From sequence record OR539220.1: 64,000 bases of DNA; one strand, 5' to 3'. The position numbers and the translations under genes were made by a program. The DNA is from Escherichia phage vB-Eco-KMB40. Under the pieces are notes generated by a model that made no database searches, was not told the DNA's origin, and saw nothing but the letters and a program-made list of their open reading frames with translations. How positions within the stretch are numbered: position 1 is the first letter of the stretch; each line of letters begins with the position of its first letter. Positions 42,412 to 52,144 of this stretch are shown one piece after another.

Positions 42412-42897
42412 TCAAGTATTGTAAAACATTTGATTCAATCGCTTATATTGCCGAATCTTTTGGTCAGAAAAAGAAATTTGGGTTTCAAGCCATTCAATAT
42501 ATTCTGCCGCAGCTTGCATCAAATTTCCTTCATAGCCATCGTTATTTTCTTGTGCAGCTAATTTAGCTAATGCGTATGAAATACGTTCACCTTGAAAATC
42601 AGCTTTAGGCTTCTGAACAACTTGATTAGTTCGCTCTACAACTTCTTCAATTTCGCCATTTTCAACGGATTCAGTATTCCATAAGCACCAATACGTAATT
42701 GGCTTATCATAGATATTAATAATCTTTCCGTCGGAAAGTTCAATTTCAATAATTCCAGTATCAGGCTCTATATCATCTTCACATTCTTTTGCAAGTTCAC
42801 GAACTTTAAAGACAGCACCTGCGCTAAGTTCCGGCCAGTAATTACACAGCCCTGTATCAGCACGATTAATTCTAAACCACTTATCTACTGTAATCAT
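42412..42897 (-). CDS. pin: PinA, Lon protease inhibitor (161 aa)
   Basis: 161 aa from ATG at 42897 with SD GGAG; position after gene 49; track start is TTG. Confidence 0.6.
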   Translation of the reverse strand: MITVDKWFRINRADTGLCNYWPELSAGAVFKVRELAKECEDDIEPDTGIIEIELSDGKIINIYDKPITYWCLWNTESVENGEIEEVVERTNQVVQKPKADFQGERISYALAKLAAQENNDGYEGNLMQAAAEYIEWLETQISFSDQKIRQYKRLNQMFYNT

Positions 42898-42937
42898 GTC
42901 CCATCTCCATATCAATTAAGTCATTTATCGTTGGTTC

Positions 42938-42967
42938 ATTATATACTGTTTCTTCATCAGTGTAAAC
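42938..42967 (-). promoter_or_regulatory. early sigma70-type promoter
   Basis: GTTTAC at 42962-42967, TATAAT at 42938-42943; upstream of pin. Confidence 0.5.
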
Positions 42968-43020
42968 CGGTTCTTCCGGCTCTGGCTCTACAGTTTCCCA
43001 TCTAGCCGCCCACCAAGGTT

Positions 43021-43341
43021 TTATAGCGTAATCCATTCTCGTACTGTCTGAGTTACTACACGTTCATGGGGCTCTACTAGTTCAACAGTCGGAACTGCAT
43101 AATACCAGTCAGAATGATAAGAACCTGACCGAGATTCATTTACAGCCACATGTACATTATGTTTTGGACTAAAGTAAACACACTGACGATATTGACATTT
43201 ACCATCTTGCACCCAGTCTTCTATTTCGACAGGTTTAAGATAATCGGAAAAATCGAAATCATAGTTTTCCGAAAATGCATCATGGTCTTCAATGATTTCG
43301 CTCAGAACTGCATCAACATCTAATTTATTTTCAATAGTCAT
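43021..43341 (-). CDS. hypothetical acidic protein (106 aa)
   Basis: ORF between nrdC and pin. Confidence 0.45.
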   Translation of the reverse strand: MTIENKLDVDAVLSEIIEDHDAFSENYDFDFSDYLKPVEIEDWVQDGKCQYRQCVYFSPKHNVHVAVNESRSGSYHSDWYYAVPTVELVEPHERVVTQTVREWITL

Positions 43342-44001: not shown

Positions 44002-44244
44002 TTATTCCTTAATTCCTAGTACTTGTTTAAAAGTCTCGTCGTAATCAAGACTTTGACCCGTTTGTTCTTTATGTTTGTATATAATATCACTTACTTCTGA
44101 TAGCATATTTTTATATGAACGAGTTAAAGCAGATTTAAGCACGCTGTATCTATAAGGAAATTTACCATGTTCATTATAATAAGCTATTGCTAATTCACGG
44201 ACTGCCTTTTCAGCAGCCTCCATATATTCTTTACGCTTGGTCAT
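44002..44244 (-). CDS. hypothetical protein (80 aa)
   Basis: ORF in nrdC-rI cluster. Confidence 0.45.
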
Positions 44245-44246
44245 TT

Positions 44247-44636
44247 TTAATCCAAAATATTATTAGGCATTGGTTGAACACTCACAAGTTCTTTAAAGAA
44301 CTCAGTAGAGTCAGGCAATTTAACCATTTCCGGAGCATGCTTACTGAATTTATGTTTACATTGACGGCATTTATATTCAAGCTCTGGTTTACGCCAGTTA
44401 ATCAATTGAACTTGTTCAGTACCGCATTCAGGGCAATTAGGAACGTTTTTAGAAGCTCTTTCACGTCGTTCAACCATAGCCATAATAGCATCCCATGCTG
44501 GAGGTTTAAAATCTAAATCGTCGCAGCCGTGAATCTTTCCACGCATTTCCATATCATCTTCCTCACCAGCCATAATAATTTTAATTAGACTAGAATTACT
44601 TGAAGCTGCAATGTCTTCTAATAAACGCTTTTTCAT
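44247..44636 (-). CDS. zinc-ribbon protein (129 aa)
   Basis: CPEC...CRQC Cys pairs. Confidence 0.45.
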
Positions 44637-45562
44637 TTCAATACCTCAATAGCATTACGTAAACCATTTGCTTTGGCGGTTAAAGCCTTAAGAACTTTAG
44701 TATGCTCTTCAATTTGTTTTTCAACTTCAGCCAAACGGGCATTGAGATATTCACGTTCTTCACTCAGATTATCAACCTTTTCTACTTTAGGCTCTTTTAC
44801 AACTGTCTTATATGTATTAGGGTTCTTCAGTTTAATTAGAATGCGTGAACTGTATAACATTGAACCATTATCTTCGGTTTCGTCATACATTTCCACTACG
44901 TCCATAATTTTTAACATCATGCGGAGTTTATAAGACAACGAACGAATAGTTTTGTTGTGCTTATTAATTTCTTTAGCTGTCATGGCGCCAAGATTACGTG
45001 AGTAATAATAAGGAACCTGGATATTAATTAATACTGATGAACCACCTGGCTTGTGTGTTACTTCATCAGCAATAACCCAGTCCTTAACATGAACTGTATT
45101 TGTACGGTCATCGCCTGCAGTAAACAGCTTGCGAGCATGCTTAAAAAGCATATTCACTTGGTCATTGAATTGACAAGCAAATTTATCAGCAAATTTAGTT
45201 TCAGGAATGGTAGATAACCAATCAGCCAAATGGGTCTTTTTAACATCGTTAACAATAGTAAATTCAACCAAATCAGTTATAGATGTCGCAGATTTAATGA
45301 AGCTCGGCTTCATAAAGTTTTTAATGTTATCACGAGCTACAGTAGAAGATAACATACGAGAACGTTTAAACCATTCAAGCAAATTGCCTAACGAATGAGA
45401 ATAAGCGTTTTGAGTATCTTTACAGATATGATTTTCCTGACCAACATATTGAAGGAAATCACGAAGAATATTATTGATTACTGCTCTGTGCCCGATCTGA
45501 TAATTACGGTGTTTAGTAATAAGACTGTCAAAATAATCAATATAATGTTTACGAGTTTTCAT
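44633..45562 (-). CDS. hypothetical protein with C-terminal coiled coil (309 aa)
   Basis: heptad-like C-terminus ...EEREYLNARLAEVEKQIEEHTKVLKAL. Confidence 0.5.
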   Translation of the reverse strand: MKTRKHYIDYFDSLITKHRNYQIGHRAVINNILRDFLQYVGQENHICKDTQNAYSHSLGNLLEWFKRSRMLSSTVARDNIKNFMKPSFIKSATSITDLVEFTIVNDVKKTHLADWLSTIPETKFADKFACQFNDQVNMLFKHARKLFTAGDDRTNTVHVKDWVIADEVTHKPGGSSVLINIQVPYYYSRNLGAMTAKEINKHNKTIRSLSYKLRMMLKIMDVVEMYDETEDNGSMLYSSRILIKLKNPNTYKTVVKEPKVEKVDNLSEEREYLNARLAEVEKQIEEHTKVLKALTAKANGLRNAIEVLK

Positions 45563-45614
45563 GTTCTTCTCACTTGGTTAATGATTTATACTCCGAGCCA
45601 TCCTTGGCTTTAAA

Positions 45615-46613
45615 TTACTTAATTAACTGTAAAGCTTGTTCCAGACGATCCAAGCGATTGACAGATTCTTCCCAAATCTTTTTAGCCTGCTCATATTCTT
45701 TCTGCGCTTTATTAGAAATTTCTAGAACTTCTTTATAAGCTTTTTCTAGTGCAATAACTTCTGGACGAATTTCTACCGGTTCAGGTGAATCATCAAGATT
45801 ATCCATTAGTTCCTCAAGGGTAGTTTCTTCTTTAGGAGTATTCACAATTTCATCACATTTTTGTTGATAAATTTCTTTATCAGTAGGTGAGTACGCGCAC
45901 TTTACTTCACGAAGACTAATTACAATTTTATATCCTTCCCATCCGCATATATTCTTAAAAGGATATGTATGAATATTTTCTACTGTTTCCATACAAAGTA
46001 ATGCAGTCTCTAACTGACGAGTTATAGTGCTAGCAATTGAGAAAAATTTATTAATATTCTTTTGGTTAGCGTTTGGTGTAAAAAATCCATAATTCACAAA
46101 AATAGCTACTTTATTTTCATCAAGCTCATATTCTTTTACGATAATCATATCAGAAGCCAAAGGATGAATTTGACGATAATCGCCATAACATAATTTAGAA
46201 GCTGATTTTAGAATTTGTCCTTTGAAAAGTCTGAAATTACTAATCCAACGACGAGTAAAAATATTCTCAGGGTCTTCTTTATTAAGATGATAAGAATTAA
46301 CATCACCAAACCAATTATATCCTACTACATCTTTAGTTCGTTTAATTTCTTTCCCAAATTTACTAAGAATATCTCTGTTGACTAAGTATGAAAGAAGACG
46401 AGACCCTTTAAAGGTTTTCTTAATGTCATCTTTATCTGTACGACTAGAAATTTCACGAACTTCATGAATAAATTTACTGGAAGAAACAATACTTGCATCA
46501 ATACTGCTGAGCCATTGATTGATAATAGAAAGAACAGCGTTCTGACTAGACATGGGTTTAACTTTATCATCAATAACGCTATTGAATGATTTGATATATT
46601 CGTTACGAGTCAT
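45615..46613 (-). CDS. hypothetical protein with C-terminal coiled coil (332 aa)
   Basis: track ORF trimmed to ATG at 46613, because promoter -10 lies at 46641-46646. Confidence 0.5.
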   Translation of the reverse strand: MTRNEYIKSFNSVIDDKVKPMSSQNAVLSIINQWLSSIDASIVSSSKFIHEVREISSRTDKDDIKKTFKGSRLLSYLVNRDILSKFGKEIKRTKDVVGYNWFGDVNSYHLNKEDPENIFTRRWISNFRLFKGQILKSASKLCYGDYRQIHPLASDMIIVKEYELDENKVAIFVNYGFFTPNANQKNINKFFSIASTITRQLETALLCMETVENIHTYPFKNICGWEGYKIVISLREVKCAYSPTDKEIYQQKCDEIVNTPKEETTLEELMDNLDDSPEPVEIRPEVIALEKAYKEVLEISNKAQKEYEQAKKIWEESVNRLDRLEQALQLIK

Positions 46614-46640
46614 ATTAATCTCCTCAGTAGAAAGTAAGAA

Positions 46641-46670
46641 CATTATACCACATCCTTGTGGTAAAGTAAA
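46641..46670 (-). promoter_or_regulatory. early sigma70-type promoter; 32-nt exact copy of promoter at 2424
   Basis: GTTTAC at 46665-46670, TATAAT at 46641-46646; attataccacatccttgtggtaaagtaaacta identical to 2424-2455. Confidence 0.6.
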
Positions 46671-47690
46671 CTAGTTTAGTGCGTTTAGTGCGTTGTTCAG
46701 TTTAGAACGTTGCTTCGTGAGATTTTTGACTTTTTCTTGTGCTTTTTCTAGCATCTTTTCAGCTTCTAACACTTCATTGGTCGCTTTAACGAGTTCATCA
46801 TCTACTGCCTTAAGGGACTTCTCAATCGCATCCGCGTGCCATTTTTCAACAGGTTTAAGACTCGGATTTTCAGTAGGAAGAAAATTCACTTTATTAAATT
46901 TCCATGCATCTTTATTACCTGAGCTATACATCCAAAATTTAGGATCGTTTGATGAGCAATTAGATAAATTTAAGTTATCTTGCACTTCCTGCTTTTTCTC
47001 TTGTATAACTTCGTCCTTTCTCAAAAAATCGTATTTAAATGAAACGATCATATCAAGTTCATACGTTGTTGTGTCTAATTTAAATCGTTCAAAACGAGGT
47101 AAAATCTTAGATTGAACAGCGGCAACAACATCCATATACTTAAATGCTTCTGTCAACTGTGATTTAAGGCATTCACAAATTGAAAGAGAATTTTTTGTAT
47201 TAGGTTTAAAGCTAATTCGTGCAGTTCTATTATTTTCTTTTAATGGTCTTACTTCCATCTGAAGAGTATAACCATCAAATTTCAGGTTCTTTAAGTTAAT
47301 GTCAGAACCTTTTAATCGACTAGCTGTCGACAAAATTTGCTTTAATTGTTTACGGAATAGAGCAATAAATCTCCATTCAAGACGGTAATGATTTGGATTA
47401 AAAAATCCTGTTGATAAATCAACCTTACTCTGACCAACGCCTTGAACAAATAGAGGATTTTTATAATCAATAGTTTTACAGAAATCGGTGAGCTGTTCAC
47501 GAGCAGTCATTTGCGTAATATATCCAGCTTTATCAAAATGTCGCAACCATTCACTGCTATTCATATACTTAAAGTGAATGGAACTATTAACTCTATCAGG
47601 GTCTAAATTATTTTGGCACAAAAATGTCATAACATTACGGGTATAGCTGGCATTACGAACCATATCTTCAATTTGAGAACGAGTTTTCAT
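46671..47690 (-). CDS. hypothetical protein with C-terminal coiled coil (339 aa)
   Basis: C-terminus ...EVLEAEKMLEKAQEKVKNLTKQRSKLNNALNALN. Confidence 0.5.
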   Translation of the reverse strand: MKTRSQIEDMVRNASYTRNVMTFLCQNNLDPDRVNSSIHFKYMNSSEWLRHFDKAGYITQMTAREQLTDFCKTIDYKNPLFVQGVGQSKVDLSTGFFNPNHYRLEWRFIALFRKQLKQILSTASRLKGSDINLKNLKFDGYTLQMEVRPLKENNRTARISFKPNTKNSLSICECLKSQLTEAFKYMDVVAAVQSKILPRFERFKLDTTTYELDMIVSFKYDFLRKDEVIQEKKQEVQDNLNLSNCSSNDPKFWMYSSGNKDAWKFNKVNFLPTENPSLKPVEKWHADAIEKSLKAVDDELVKATNEVLEAEKMLEKAQEKVKNLTKQRSKLNNALNALN

Positions 47691-47698
47691 GGTATTCC

Positions 47699-48622
47699 TT
47701 AAGATTTAAGTAAATCAACAATTTTAATTAACTTTTCACGCTCAGATTTAGCTTTACTACTCAATCCAGATAGTCTAAAGATTTCATCGTCATATTGTTG
47801 AATAGAAATATTCAGCTCTTCAATTTGCTTATTAAAATAATCAATTTGCTCAGAATGTTTTTCGTTACTACGAACTGGTACAGGTTTTGTAGGCAATTTA
47901 GTTGAACTGGATTCATCCGGGCGATAAATTAAAATACAACTTGAACCAATTGGACATTTTGCACCAGATGAATATTCTAATGTTCCAGATTCTTTTAAAA
48001 CTTCAAAAGCTAAACAGAGATGATGACCCATATTGACATAATCAGTAGAGCGAGCTCTGATGTAATAATCATCTCCACGAGTACTAAATTTAAAGCATTT
48101 AAGGTCTTCTGTATTATTGGTCTTAAAAATCATTTGTTTATCTAGACCTTTAGCTAATCGAGCGCCTAATGCTAATAATCGTCGTTGATTTTCCCACAAA
48201 TATGCAATCATTTGGTCAAATGATAATTTTGGCATTAGTCGACCATAAAGGTCATATCCTTTATTATAATTACGAAGAATTTCACTCGCATTAATACGAG
48301 ACAATGCTCCAATTTTATTAAGGGCTTTCATGATGCGATTAGATAAACTCATTCCAGATCCGTTTGTTCGCTGTAAATGTTTTTCTAATCCAAATCCAAT
48401 ATCAACTTTAAATTTATCTAAAATTTCAGCATGAACATCTCTGTCAATAACATTCAAATCCAAAGTTGGGTTAAATCTATGAAAAAATTTATCTGGCTCT
48501 CCACGACGAAGTACAGTCCATTCATTCAATTTTTTATTAACTAAAGATTTAATTACTGTATTGACATTATTAATTACTACTGACATATTTTCCTCACTCA
48601 ATTTCAATTTTACTAAATACAC
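47699..48622 (-). CDS. hypothetical protein with C-terminal coiled coil (307 aa)
   Basis: C-terminus ...IEELNISIQQYDDEIFRLSGL. Confidence 0.5.
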   Translation of the reverse strand: MYLVKLKLSEENMSVVINNVNTVIKSLVNKKLNEWTVLRRGEPDKFFHRFNPTLDLNVIDRDVHAEILDKFKVDIGFGLEKHLQRTNGSGMSLSNRIMKALNKIGALSRINASEILRNYNKGYDLYGRLMPKLSFDQMIAYLWENQRRLLALGARLAKGLDKQMIFKTNNTEDLKCFKFSTRGDDYYIRARSTDYVNMGHHLCLAFEVLKESGTLEYSSGAKCPIGSSCILIYRPDESSSTKLPTKPVPVRSNEKHSEQIDYFNKQIEELNISIQQYDDEIFRLSGLSSKAKSEREKLIKIVDLLKS

Positions 48623-49001
48623 AGAATATGATGGAAAAGACTATATAAGCACCGCATACAGATTGAACTAATACCATTCCAAAGAACCAAACGATATTAT
48701 CAAACAATGTCTGTTTTACGTCGAAAGGACGTAAACTTACAGTAATATTATCACCTTTTTCTATTGAAGAATACATCTCTGGGGAAATATATTCACTAAA
48801 TCTATAACCGTCTTTGAGTTCATATACGGCAATAAACGATAAACTAGACCCCTTTCCTTGAGTTCCTGTAAGGGTATTAACTACAGTAACATCATAATCT
48901 TTATAATGCATATAATCATTAATAGCATAATAACCATATGCAACTACTATACATAAACAACATATCAATAAATTCAATCTTTTAATTATCAACTGTTTCA
49001 T
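48594..49001 (-). CDS. membrane protein (135 aa)
   Basis: two hydrophobic segments. Confidence 0.45.
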   Translation of the reverse strand: MKQLIIKRLNLLICCLCIVVAYGYYAINDYMHYKDYDVTVVNTLTGTQGKGSSLSFIAVYELKDGYRFSEYISPEMYSSIEKGDNITVSLRPFDVKQTLFDNIVWFFGMVLVQSVCGAYIVFSIIFCVFSKIEIE

Positions 49002-49030
49002 AATAATCTCAATTAAAAGGGCTTAGAACC

Positions 49031-49055
49031 ATTATACCATCCTTGGTATAAAGCG
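49031..49055 (-). promoter_or_regulatory. candidate middle promoter (MotA-box-like CGCTTTA, 12-nt spacer, TGGTATAAT)
   Basis: minus strand GCTTTA at 49049-49054, TATAAT at 49031-49036 preceded by TGG. Confidence 0.4.
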
Positions 49056-49056
49056 G

Positions 49057-49584
49057 TTATGCGAGTACCGTCTTTAACCGTTCTTCAAACTTCCGAAGAG
49101 TATTTTGGCGTTCAGCTCTTTGCTTTTTGTAAGTTTCAATACGCTCTGAAATGAGAGTGTATCGTTCATTTACTGATTCTTTCATAAAATCAGGAATTTC
49201 ACGAGAAGCTTTAATCTCATCAAATTTATCAATAACAGCTTGCTCTTCAGCAATTAAGTTATCATACATTAAAATATCTTTCTTGATGAACTCAATATCT
49301 TCTTGAGTTACACGAGATAATTTAGATGCTTTATCCTTTTTGTACTGTTCGTTAGTATCACGAGACCAGTGTAATGTACGATTTTTATTCGTATTTTTGT
49401 AAATTTCTACAATACCAATTTCATCAATAATAACGATCCAATTCCAACGGGATTTGTAAATTTGTCCTCCATCAACAGTGATTTCACCTCCGATTGAGAT
49501 GTCATTAAAGAACTTGCTTTGTGCTTCAGATTTAAATTTACCATCGTTGTAATTTACCAGGTTGAAAATATCTTTAGCATTCAT
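49057..49584 (-). CDS. hypothetical protein with C-terminal coiled coil (175 aa)
   Basis: track ORF trimmed to ATG at 49584 with SD GGAGG, because promoter -10 lies at 49613. Confidence 0.45.
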   Translation of the reverse strand: MNAKDIFNLVNYNDGKFKSEAQSKFFNDISIGGEITVDGGQIYKSRWNWIVIIDEIGIVEIYKNTNKNRTLHWSRDTNEQYKKDKASKLSRVTQEDIEFIKKDILMYDNLIAEEQAVIDKFDEIKASREIPDFMKESVNERYTLISERIETYKKQRAERQNTLRKFEERLKTVLA

Positions 49585-49612: not shown

Positions 49613-49642
49613 ATAGTACCACAGAGGAACAGTCTTGTAAAC
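49613..49642 (-). promoter_or_regulatory. early sigma70-type promoter
   Basis: GTTTAC at 49637-49642, TACTAT at 49613-49618. Confidence 0.55.
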
Positions 49643-50048: not shown

Positions 50049-51017
50049 TTATTTCAGAAGAGTAACCTCAGCAATTTCTTCCCAACCGTTTTTGTCGGTC
50101 ATAATAAAGTCAGCAAGATAAAGTGCAGTACGCAGTGAAACATTGCGTAAACGATTAACATTGACTTTCATCCATGATAATGCTTTATAAGTTTCTTCAT
50201 CAGAAAGACCGCGTTTTTGCATCATGTCAGTTGAAAGAATAACATCTTCAACCCTGACCATAATTTCTTCATTAGTGTGAACACCCAAATCCAAATAAAC
50301 TGAGCGGGAAACTAATGCTTGTAAATGTGGAGCAAGTTTAGTACCACGGTCTAATTCGCGGTCAATGTCAACGTTTGTGATAAAAACAATCGTTCCTTTA
50401 AATTCAAACTCACGCTCAATGCCTTTTTCTTCTAAGTAAGAAGATGCGGTGCTCCAGCAGACTTTACGGGTCTCTCCGGTGTCCAGAGCAGCTTTCAGAA
50501 GATTAAGAATGTCCATATCAGAGAAAACATCCACATCATCAATCAAAAGGACAGAATTCTCTTCACGATTATTCCAAAGCTGTTCATAAAGACCGATACC
50601 AGAGATTTTACCATTAATGCTTTTATATTCGATGTATCCAATATCATTTGCTTTATTTAAAGCTTTATCTAAAGAATACGTTTTACCAATACCTGCTGCT
50701 CCAGAGATAATTAATGAACGAATGTTTCCGTTAATAATACCATTCGTCATCATTCCCATAACATTAAATCTTTTATTAATGCGGGTTTTCATATCTTCAT
50801 ACGATTCTTTAACTTCTTCAACTTTTACACCATCATATGAAATGTCTGATTTGTAAACCCAAACACCGCGACGCTTACCGTCAATTTCAACAAAAACTTT
50901 ACCATCTCCTTGTGCATCTACCGGAGCATTATCTGGGAACCATTCACCTAAGAGCTCAAAAGTTCCAGAGATTTCTTTACCGAAGTAGATACCCTTATTG
51001 ATAGTTACAGTTTTCAT
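50049..51017 (-). CDS. P-loop ATPase, AAA-like (322 aa)
   Basis: Walker A GAAGIGKT, Walker B-like VLLIDDVD; ATG at 51017 with SD GGAGAA; track ORF extends through the promoter. Confidence 0.55.
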   Translation of the reverse strand: MKTVTINKGIYFGKEISGTFELLGEWFPDNAPVDAQGDGKVFVEIDGKRRGVWVYKSDISYDGVKVEEVKESYEDMKTRINKRFNVMGMMTNGIINGNIRSLIISGAAGIGKTYSLDKALNKANDIGYIEYKSINGKISGIGLYEQLWNNREENSVLLIDDVDVFSDMDILNLLKAALDTGETRKVCWSTASSYLEEKGIEREFEFKGTIVFITNVDIDRELDRGTKLAPHLQALVSRSVYLDLGVHTNEEIMVRVEDVILSTDMMQKRGLSDEETYKALSWMKVNVNRLRNVSLRTALYLADFIMTDKNGWEEIAEVTLLK

Positions 51018-51051
51018 TTTATTCTCCAAATCCGTATCAGTTGATAGTTGT

Positions 51052-51081
51052 ATAGTACCATAAAGCTTTATGCTTGTAAAC
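51052..51081 (-). promoter_or_regulatory. early sigma70-type promoter
   Basis: GTTTAC at 51076-51081, TACTAT at 51052-51057. Confidence 0.55.
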
Positions 51082-51110
51082 CGTTTTGTGAAAAATTTTT
51101 GAAATAAAAA

Positions 51111-51128
51111 GGGAGCCCGAAGGCTCCC
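51111..51128 (-). terminator. intrinsic terminator hairpin
   Basis: GGGAGCC-cgaa-GGCTCCC followed by U-rich tract on transcript. Confidence 0.6.
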
Positions 51129-51130
51129 TA

Positions 51131-52144
51131 TCATTTATAATAACTTCGGTGGTTTTCAAGATAGACCTTCTCAAGGAAGTCATCCCAGAAACTCATGTCT
51201 ACTTTTTGCTGCATACCGTTCTTAGAAGCTTCAGTAGATGCTGCTTCTACTTGATCGACCACATCTTCCAAAAACTCTTGAACTGTTTTAAATGGATGTT
51301 TACCCAACTTCACGTCGAGAATAAATGGAGCATCTTGGAGTGGATAAACCAAGTCACCAGTTTTGTAAATTTCCAATAGTTGGAGTCCACCACGACAAGC
51401 ATGACTCAGAGCTTTCCAGTCAATGCCTTCATTAGCTTCGGCTTTACGAGCACGTTCACCATATTCAGCATCTAATTTATTCAGTGACTGCTTAAGCTCA
51501 ATAAGAGAAAGTGTTGTCTGATATTTACGACCCAACACAGTGTAGAACGTTTGCGGGCCTGTTTTCTCGTGATTATGGAACACCCATTCACAGAATTCGT
51601 TTTCTGGAAGACGATGCTTAATATCTTCAACTTTAGTGCGACGCTGCTTAATAGAACCATCTTCTTGGTAATCAACCCATTGCTCGGGGATTTGATTAAC
51701 TACTTTCAATACATCACGTAATGCAGCCAAACGAGAACCCTTGACACCGTATTTAGAAGCTTGCTTGCGAACATATCCTAAATAGGATTTCATGTTAGTT
51801 GTATAAAAACGAGAACGGTTGTCTTGAATAAACTTCCACACATCAGGCAAATCAGATTTAACCACTAGTTCAGGTGGAGTGTGAAGCATATCCAATGCTA
51901 CAGTTTCACCATCTGCTGCTAATTTAAAGAAATATTTAAGACTGTATAGTTCATGGTCAATATCATCTTTAGTGTTTTTAGATGATGTGTTGTTAGTGTT
52001 TTTACTCATGTGCTCTTTGACATTTCCGATAAGAATATCACGAGCAGGAGGAACAAAAATTTCTTTAAAATCTACATCAGATTCTGGGGTAGAAGTTCCA
52101 TAAAGATGACTACCAAAATAGCTTTTCATTACTGTTTTCATCAT
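51131..52144 (-). CDS. Pol-beta-superfamily nucleotidyltransferase-like protein (337 aa)
   Basis: GS-x10-DVD signature in FGSHLYGTSTPESDVDF. Confidence 0.45.
   Translation of the reverse strand: MMKTVMKSYFGSHLYGTSTPESDVDFKEIFVPPARDILIGNVKEHMSKNTNNTSSKNTKDDIDHELYSLKYFFKLAADGETVALDMLHTPPELVVKSDLPDVWKFIQDNRSRFYTTNMKSYLGYVRKQASKYGVKGSRLAALRDVLKVVNQIPEQWVDYQEDGSIKQRRTKVEDIKHRLPENEFCEWVFHNHEKTGPQTFYTVLGRKYQTTLSLIELKQSLNKLDAEYGERARKAEANEGIDWKALSHACRGGLQLLEIYKTGDLVYPLQDAPFILDVKLGKHPFKTVQEFLEDVVDQVEAASTEASKNGMQQKVDMSFWDDFLEKVYLENHRSYYK

Follow-up and report, generated by a model that had tools for sequence, protein, structure and literature searches.

The genes considered here, nrdC.3, nrdC.4, nrdC.5, nrdC.6 and nrdC.8, form an array on the minus strand of a 64,000 nt stretch of DNA from Escherichia phage vB-Eco-KMB40 (OR539220.1), referred to below as the window, and encode proteins that all end in a coiled-coil tail. 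As judged from sequence profiles, nrdC.3 to nrdC.6 are paralogues belonging to one superfamily, while nrdC.8, whose product is smaller and carries a helical tail of analogous kind, stands apart and is not filed as a member. The explanation that we favour, and regard as probable, is that the region is a T-even anti-defence island in which nrdC.3–nrdC.6 are tandem duplicates whose N-terminal heads bind one defence protein each while the tails oligomerize, nrdC.3, nrdC.4 and nrdC.6 being inhibitors whose targets have yet to be found.

The source phage is T4-like, a Tequatrovirus. In a megablast search the 4952-bp region carrying the array matched 743 phage records, the best at 97.6% identity and T4 at 92.4%, with the features nrdC.3–nrdC.8 under the match. 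Gene names were assigned by annotation transfer from T4 together with protein identity, as follows (lengths in residues).

44633..45562, minus strand: nrdC.3-type gene; 309; 62% identical to T4 nrdC.3; phrog_1435
45615..46613, minus strand: nrdC.4; 332; 91.9% identical to T4 nrdC.4; ribosome-binding site (RBS) GAGGAG
46671..47690, minus strand: nrdC.5; 339; PF23882 (DUF7235), E=1e-120; 92.6% identical to T4 over the full length
47699..48586, minus strand: nrdC.6; 295; 97% identical to T4 over the shared part; homologues carry PF26899 (Phage_T4_Y05B)
48594..49001, minus strand: nrdC.7; 135; predicted membrane protein; phrog_2547; between nrdC.6 and nrdC.8
49057..49584, minus strand: nrdC.8; 175; 98.9% identical to T4; phrog_2274; small N-terminal domain and helical tail of ~75 residues

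A preliminary description of this DNA, made from the letters alone, had placed five open reading frames (ORFs) here, in the nrdC–rI variable region; that placement was correct, and all five are present on the minus strand at the coordinates it gave. The fourth had been drawn as 47699..48622; the ORF is real, but its start is likelier to be the ATG at 48586 than the GTG at 48622, because an RBS (GAGTGAGGAAAAT) is found there and the position agrees with the T4 annotation. Similarly, an ATG upstream of nrdC.4 at 46643 is unlikely to be used as a start because it lies inside the −10 element of a promoter. The RBSs of nrdC.4 and nrdC.8 contain GGAG. The five proteins had also been called consecutive, which is not strictly so: between the fourth and the fifth comes nrdC.7, which lacks a coiled coil and does not belong to the family. 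Two of them do begin MKTR (nrdC.3 MKTRKHY and nrdC.5 MKTRSQI), and the N-terminus of nrdC.4, MTRNEY, belongs to the same homologous region in the joint alignment described below.

The heptad-rich, Lys/Glu-rich C-terminal helices that had drawn attention to the array were borne out. On its minus strand the window has 69 ORFs that reach 100 residues. When a crude a/d-periodicity score was applied to the final 45 residues of each, seven scored at or above the cut-off of 0.6 and five of these seven are nrdC.3, nrdC.4, nrdC.5, nrdC.6 and nrdC.8 (0.65–0.85, with nrdC.3 at 0.78). The five lie in a run of six ORFs, for which the hypergeometric p is ~1e-5 for a fixed run and ~7e-4 allowing for ~64 runs. 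K, E, R, D, Q and N together account for 48–54% of the last 50 residues compared with 37–47% of the whole proteins. AlphaFold2 (AF2) predicted a 59-residue terminal helix in nrdC.5 and, in nrdC.6, a 53-residue tail made up of helices 242–271 and 277–294. Taking the canonical definition of a coiled coil (hydrophobic a/d heptads extending for 28 residues or more within one continuous predicted helix), all five tails qualify by heptad score, and nrdC.5 and nrdC.6 by AF2 helices as well. The tails map as follows (pLDDT, predicted local distance difference test).

44633..44797, minus strand: nrdC.3 coiled-coil tail, residues ~256–309
45615..45788, minus strand: nrdC.4 coiled-coil tail, ending ...NRLDRLEQALQLIK
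46671..46853, minus strand: nrdC.5 C-terminal helix, residues 280–338, starting KPVEKWHADAIEKS and ending ...QRSKLNNALNALN; an AF2 block with pLDDT 67–86
47699..47863, minus strand: nrdC.6 helical tail, residues 242–294, kinked at RLSGLSS; the best-conserved part of the protein

The kink suggests that the modelled nrdC.6 tail may be a helical hairpin instead of a single long coil. A terminal motif, (Q/E)R.KL..A(L/I)..L(K/N), is found at the C-terminus of nrdC.3–nrdC.6, of the bridging family H introduced below and of the Moonvirus protein G1, and in looser form in Acinetobacter family F; the C-terminus of nrdC.8 is different (ERLKTVLA). Matches of the tails to Pfam models (prefoldin, scaffold, CENP-F and others) were all far below the curated cut-offs and were dismissed as reflecting coiled-coil composition.

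The array had been proposed to be a diversified paralogue family, and this holds for nrdC.3–nrdC.6, directly or through a bridging family, and finds no support for nrdC.8. Direct pairwise BLASTP among the five proteins connected only nrdC.3 and nrdC.4 (E=2e-6 over 226 head residues), which also share a PHROG (phrog_1435) and match in HHalign at 97.8% probability (E=1e-12; 98.1% for the heads alone). Pairwise profile comparison, the check that had been suggested, also matched nrdC.4 with nrdC.5 (85%, E=6e-6, collinear over 241 columns of enriched alignments; heads alone 55%); a first pass with shallow alignments from eight loci had given weak nrdC.3–nrdC.5 and nrdC.4–nrdC.5 links and none for nrdC.6 or nrdC.8. 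Between nrdC.5 and nrdC.6 direct HHalign reached only 5–11%, the aligned segments nonetheless holding convincing shared motifs, and adding AF2-derived secondary structure did not rescue the match.

The connection between nrdC.5 and nrdC.6 came from an HMMER search of 1.84 billion representative proteins with the nrdC.6 profile, which gave 15 hits in all. Among them were four divergent full-length proteins (P0192, P0193, P0196 and P0198; E=1e-9 to 2e-4), which are single-copy proteins of T4-like phages and were aligned together as family H. In HHalign, H matched nrdC.6 at 99.1% (E=5e-19), nrdC.5 at 98.3% (E=1.6e-14) and nrdC.4 at 71.6% (E=3.5e-5, 240 collinear columns), as well as the single-copy proteins of a Klebsiella phage (95.6%, E=1.3e-8) and a Citrobacter phage (86.2%, E=4.9e-6). 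With the tails removed, the H heads still matched nrdC.6, nrdC.5 and nrdC.4 (97.1%, 92.1% and 76.6% respectively), and the H tails alone matched nrdC.5 and nrdC.6, each at 97.4%. Controls in which H was reversed or column-shuffled gave probabilities of at most 0.5% (E at least 0.13). As both nrdC.5 and nrdC.6 match H, also without tails and against such controls, the two are related. A joint multi-family alignment revealed common motifs along the full length, from an N-terminal M(K)TR..Y to the terminal tail motif, among them a helix [FL].[KR]...[LIF][ST]...A...L..[FY], a helix ending A(R/S)(R/K)L..G(D) and a helix L..AL....[DE]. Every HHalign probability of nrdC.8 against nrdC.3–nrdC.6 and families F, G and H was 5% or less. 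The window proteins are clear members of Pfam PF26899 (nrdC.6) and PF26897 (probably nrdC.3/nrdC.4) and of PHROGs 1435, 2351 and 2257, all of them unannotated. Whereas the databases keep these as separate families of unknown function, here nrdC.3–nrdC.6 and their single-copy Straboviridae relatives, with their conserved tail, are unified into one superfamily, which covers PF26897, PF23882 and PF26899 and merges three separate Pfam/PHROG families.

The genomic position of the relatives agrees with this grouping. The H proteins are encoded in single copy on metagenomic T4-like contigs at the array's locus, with homologues of nrdC.11 (RlaP) and nrdC.9 (DUF7203) on one side and the nrdC, pin and endonuclease VII genes on the other; the superfamily as a whole has nrdC.9–nrdC.11 upstream of it and nrdC.2, nrdC.1 and nrdC downstream. 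Copies were counted as coiled-coil-tailed genes of ~300–370 residues upstream of nrdC, of the nrdC.3–nrdC.6 or H type and leaving out nrdC.8.

One copy (324–371 residues): Moonvirus, a Klebsiella phage, Serratia phage Muldoon and Acinetobacter phages
Two adjacent copies: Acinetobacter phage Acj61
Two or three copies: Mosigvirus
Three copies: Dhakavirus and Gaprivervirus
Four copies: Tequatrovirus

As the copy number rises from one to four across the groups, the array is a lineage-specific tandem expansion. Word-indexed searches with nrdC.5 and nrdC.6 returned Tevenvirinae proteins only, nrdC.5 having 78 matches, all Tevenvirinae-type; together with the 15 hits of the nrdC.6 profile among 1.84 billion representatives, they show, so far as such searches reach, a superfamily confined to T4-like phages. 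Loci fetched from viral contigs held Tequatrovirus copies only, at ~90% identity. Within Tequatrovirus nrdC.3 exists as two deep allele types that are ~60% identical, and the type in the window is 76–77% identical to the Mosigvirus copies compared with 62% to T4, a pattern that suggests exchange between genera.

Several damaged or rearranged copies were encountered. One Tequatrovirus contig from IMG/VR has nrdC.4 as a pair of ORFs that overlap (L005, 9971–10552 and 10527–11003), which makes it a frameshifted gene or a pseudogene. A 299-residue protein (P0056) is an in-frame fusion of nrdC.5 residues ~146–272 to nrdC.3 from residue ~137 to the end, with the junction at a common VN motif; the deletion takes out the nrdC.5 tail, the whole of nrdC.4 and the nrdC.3 N-terminus, and corresponds to window positions ~46870–47255 joined to 44633–45154. 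The T4 RefSeq nrdC.6 (NC_000866.4; L025, 3434–4261) has 275 residues and an unrelated C-terminus, a frameshift having lost the helical tail, which is readable in another frame. An error of sequencing, or a lesion peculiar to that strain, probably accounts for this, because the T4 annotation in the HIDEN-SEQ supplement has an nrdC.6 of 891 nt. The position of nrdC.7 also varies: it is inside the array in Tequatrovirus, while its Mosigvirus homologue (38% identical; L008, 10251–10664, and L009, 9295–9708) is next to nrdC, so nrdC.7 moves independently of the paralogues. Phages with a single-copy member have, directly upstream of it and in the position that nrdC.8 occupies in T-even phages, a conserved protein of ~256–262 residues without a coiled coil (L013, 5312–6100; L014, 4353–5141; L026, 5145–5924; L027, 4301–5071).

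In all five families the tail is conserved above the head across genera, as the following identities show.

nrdC.6: tail 55–73%, head 27–42% (across genera)
nrdC.4: tail 56–61%, head 43–45% (against Dhakavirus)
nrdC.5: tail 31–41%, head 21–26% (across genera)
nrdC.8: tail 76%, head 61–64% (across genera)
nrdC.3: tail 77–81%, head 58–59% (between the two allele types)

In the nrdC.6 tail the surface-type residues DDEIFRLSGL are invariant.

AF2 models were obtained for nrdC.6 (pLDDT 78, predicted template modelling score 0.66) and nrdC.5 (pLDDT 58). In both models the elements follow in the same order, with a helical N-domain and a long helix first, then a hairpin, a helix and another hairpin, and finally a linker and a long helix. 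Foldseek searches of BFVD retrieved uncharacterized array-position proteins of other Straboviridae, and among the matches of the nrdC.6 model were proteins from Acinetobacter phage arrays, for example Acj61 p121; there was no cross-match between the nrdC.5 and nrdC.6 families with either model. The 304-residue Acj61 match is unambiguously the array gene p121 and not nrdC.10, because nrdC.10 there has 335 residues, but for a 335-residue match in another Acinetobacter phage (fHyAci03) the array gene and the AAA protein nrdC.10, which are of the same length, could not be told apart. In the PDB, Foldseek retrieved nothing significant for the nrdC.6 model, the best match having E=0.048 and a probability of 0.23 and most matches being de novo designs, and sequence searches with nrdC.5, nrdC.8 and the nrdC.6 profile gave nothing below E=0.03. 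PADLOC detected no resemblance to defence proteins; its matches to BrxC and BrxF were below threshold and amount to coiled-coil noise. The low-confidence nrdC.5 model gave many weak BFVD matches (E ~0.01, target TM 0.3–0.45) to tail completion and tail terminator proteins. The poor quality of the model may have produced these as noise, or they may hint at an alpha/beta core resembling a virion protein.

Two promoters of the T4 early type or resembling it lie within or just upstream of the array.

46642..46670, minus strand: perfect T4-type early promoter in the nrdC.5/nrdC.4 gap; GTTTACT, 17 nt, TG-TATAAT; GTTTACTTTACCACAAGGATGTGGTATAAT
49613..49641, minus strand: early-promoter-like site upstream of nrdC.8; GTTTACA, 17 nt, TG-TACTAT

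From these the array genes are predicted to be transcribed early. A 32-bp stretch that includes the first promoter (46642–46673; GTTTACTTTACCACAAGGATGTGGTATAAT) is repeated exactly at 2424–2455 on the minus strand, in an intergenic gap near 2.4 kb, and this is why almost every phage record showed a second place of megablast match. Near-identical promoter and leader cassettes (GTTTACAAG...TGGTACTATACAACTATCAAC) are also present on the minus strand at 49613–49641 (nrdC.8) and 51052–51080 (nrdC.10). Recombination between repeats of this kind could give rise to the deletions and amplifications seen in the region.

The preliminary description had called the function of the proteins unknown, which is out of date for nrdC.5 and nrdC.8 and stands for nrdC.3, nrdC.4 and nrdC.6, for which no function was found. 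A T4 deletion mutant was unable to infect cells carrying dsr1, a SIR2-domain defence gene of E. coli ECOR17, and expression of nrdC.5 restored infection (Srikant et al., 2022, eLife, PMC9391042). The activity is known for the T4 copy, of which the window ORF 46671–47690 is the orthologue, and in the paper nothing is said of a paralogous relation to nrdC.3, nrdC.4 or nrdC.6. Literature searches on the mechanism of Dsr1 inhibition by NrdC.5 and on the function of nrdC.3, nrdC.4 and nrdC.6 returned genome announcements only. A possible functional analogy for NrdC.5, as a small phage protein binding a SIR2-type NADase, is DSAD1, a phage protein that blocks DSR2 through binding its sensor region; DSR1 and DSR2 are different proteins. 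Bas37_0203 inhibits Druantia type III (HIDEN-SEQ preprint, bioRxiv 10.1101/2025.11.20.689424). When located in the Bas37 genome (MZ501089), it proved to be the nrdC.8 orthologue, in the same array position and 99.4% identical (174/175) to the window copy; the preprint gives a locus tag only and reports no known domains and no mechanism, and the equation of this inhibitor with T4 nrdC.8 is made here. Bas37_0203 was without homology to nrdC.3–nrdC.6 in any test run.

Two further inhibitors are encoded just downstream of the array: nrdC.1 inhibits Septu (bioRxiv 10.1101/2025.11.20.689424) and gp49.2 inhibits OLD (2026 paper, PMC13096335), so the region is an anti-defence island. NrdC.1 (44002–44244) and Gp49.2 (~42881–43036) belong to the same early, dispensable, variable stretch from gene 49 to rI, and each is one small protein acting against one defence system; they differ from the array proteins in sequence and size, have no coiled-coil tail and lie outside the array coordinates. 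In the supplement to the same preprint (bioRxiv 10.1101/2025.11.20.689424), nrdC.3–nrdC.8 and their Bas37 orthologues are listed as non-essential on E. coli K-12. Early promoters, the dispensability listed in that supplement, and a copy number and allele type that vary, with some copies damaged, give the array genes the profile of counter-defence genes.

From this evidence the following mechanism can be proposed. The genes nrdC.3–nrdC.6 arose by tandem duplication of one ancestral gene, which T4-like phages that are less closely related still have in single copy just upstream of nrdC. Every one of the proteins comprises a fast-diverging helical and alpha/beta head of ~220–275 residues, a disordered linker and a C-terminal coiled-coil or helical tail with the terminal motif. 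It would act as a stoichiometric inhibitor, the head recognizing and neutralizing one host defence protein, which would be the SIR2 NADase Dsr1 for nrdC.5 and Druantia III for nrdC.8, and the conserved tail oligomerizing the inhibitor to give multivalent, high-avidity binding to oligomeric defence complexes; nrdC.3, nrdC.4 and nrdC.6 would be inhibitors of targets yet to be found. We infer direct binding, an oligomerizing tail and an anti-defence role for these three. If the head is a specificity module evolving in an arms race while its scaffold stays constant, then head/tail asymmetry, an array enlarged by duplication and deep allele types are what would be expected.

A number of points weigh against this explanation. 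No anti-defence phenotype has been reported for nrdC.3, nrdC.4 or nrdC.6, and they show no significant depletion in the accessible part of the HIDEN-SEQ supplement. The array of five holds at least two gene families, nrdC.8 having no detectable homology to the rest, and Dsr1 and Druantia III have no obvious common trait that would suggest one mode of inhibition. Within the superfamily nrdC.3 is joined only via nrdC.4, its direct matches to H and nrdC.5 being weak (2–30%). The nrdC.5 model is of low confidence, the argument for a shared fold being one of secondary-structure order and sequence profiles, not of superposition, and Foldseek of BFVD with the nrdC.6 model retrieved no nrdC.3, nrdC.4 or nrdC.5 entry.

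Four other explanations were weighed. That the five are unrelated proteins, brought together as a chance neighbourhood of small helical-tailed proteins in an AT-rich genome with convergent or compositional tails, would suit the single BLASTP link between nrdC.3 and nrdC.4, the division of the five among four or five families by Pfam and PHROGs, and the lack of significant direct HHalign matches between nrdC.5 and nrdC.6 and between nrdC.8 and all others. We consider it highly improbable for the array as a whole: family H links nrdC.4, nrdC.5 and nrdC.6 at 72–99%, also without tails, while the controls stayed at or below 0.5%, and the motifs are conserved over the full length and the single-copy relatives elsewhere are syntenic. 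It is refuted for nrdC.3–nrdC.6 and survives for nrdC.8 only. Still less credible is a structural or assembly role, as scaffold-like or fibre-like proteins. Coiled coils are frequent in phage structural and assembly proteins, and the sub-threshold Pfam/PHROG tail matches to scaffolding and prefoldin models, like the weak tail completion and tail terminator matches that Foldseek gave for the low-confidence nrdC.5 model, could be read in this way, but the promoters are early and not late, all the genes are non-essential, the cluster is variable and sometimes deleted, and two members have demonstrated anti-defence activity.

The remaining two accept the paralogy. One holds that nrdC.3, nrdC.4 and nrdC.6 are true paralogues but not defence inhibitors, serving instead in host takeover or regulation or being redundant or decaying copies, with the anti-Dsr1 activity as one specialization. 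This is possible, though we doubt it. It draws on the absence of a reported phenotype for the three in the HIDEN-SEQ text and the accessible part of its supplement, and on the frequency of damaged copies (the split nrdC.4, the frameshifted RefSeq nrdC.6, the deletion fusions); yet every family is kept across genera with strongly conserved tails, which points to purifying selection, proven anti-defence genes crowd the neighbourhood, and fast-diverging heads with two deep nrdC.3 allele types are a typical arms-race pattern. The other supposes that the tails dock all the paralogues onto one common host or phage partner, or co-assemble them, so that the heads are interchangeable on a shared platform. 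The occurrence of the same terminal motif in the four paralogues and in relatives from Acinetobacter, Klebsiella and Citrobacter phages is in keeping with docking, as is the invariance of the surface-type residues of the nrdC.6 tail, which goes beyond the needs of a plain coiled coil. Within one phage, however, the tails of the paralogues are very different except in the last ~12 residues, and tail-only HHalign comparisons of nrdC.3–nrdC.4, nrdC.3–nrdC.6 and nrdC.4–nrdC.6 were not significant; such differences fit orthogonal homo-oligomers better than a shared partner, and no partner is known. We therefore judge docking to be unlikely and retain the explanation of nrdC.3–nrdC.6 as duplicated defence inhibitors with oligomerizing tails.

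Upstream of the array, the product of nrdC.10 (50049–51134) is a P-loop AAA/STAND-like ATPase with weak Pfam matches only, and that of nrdC.11 (51131–52144) an RlaP-type nucleotidyltransferase of an ‘RNA repair pathway’ family (E=2e-11); both genes are conserved across distant T4-like phages. At the nrdC.11/nrdC.10 junction a strong G+C-rich hairpin of 8 bp (six G–C) followed by a T-run (51110–51129) looks like an intrinsic terminator for the minus strand.

The array is made up of T4 genes that were already known, and the region belongs to an established type, the phage anti-defence island; it is not a new kind of system. More speculatively, and with rather little confidence on our part, the superfamily might serve the Straboviridae as an ‘inhibitor platform’ built of modules, in which the conserved tail with its invariant terminal motif is a common oligomerization or docking module and the fast-evolving head is repeatedly duplicated, exchanged between genera and re-targeted, the copy number of one to four tracking the defence repertoire across the host range. 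In a sharper version the head would be a decoy, its modelled alpha/beta core possibly mimicking a phage structural protein and so luring defence sensors that recognize parts of the virion, a thought prompted by the weak BFVD matches of the low-confidence nrdC.5 model. T-even phages are the main model of counter-defence, and most of their variable early genes are without an assigned function. With the proven Dsr1 antagonist nrdC.5 in the family, nrdC.3, nrdC.4 and nrdC.6 and their Straboviridae relatives become specific candidate defence inhibitors, nominated here for use in annotation and in the planning of experiments, and the combination of a variable head with a conserved tail offers a testable structural hypothesis for how such inhibitors may work.

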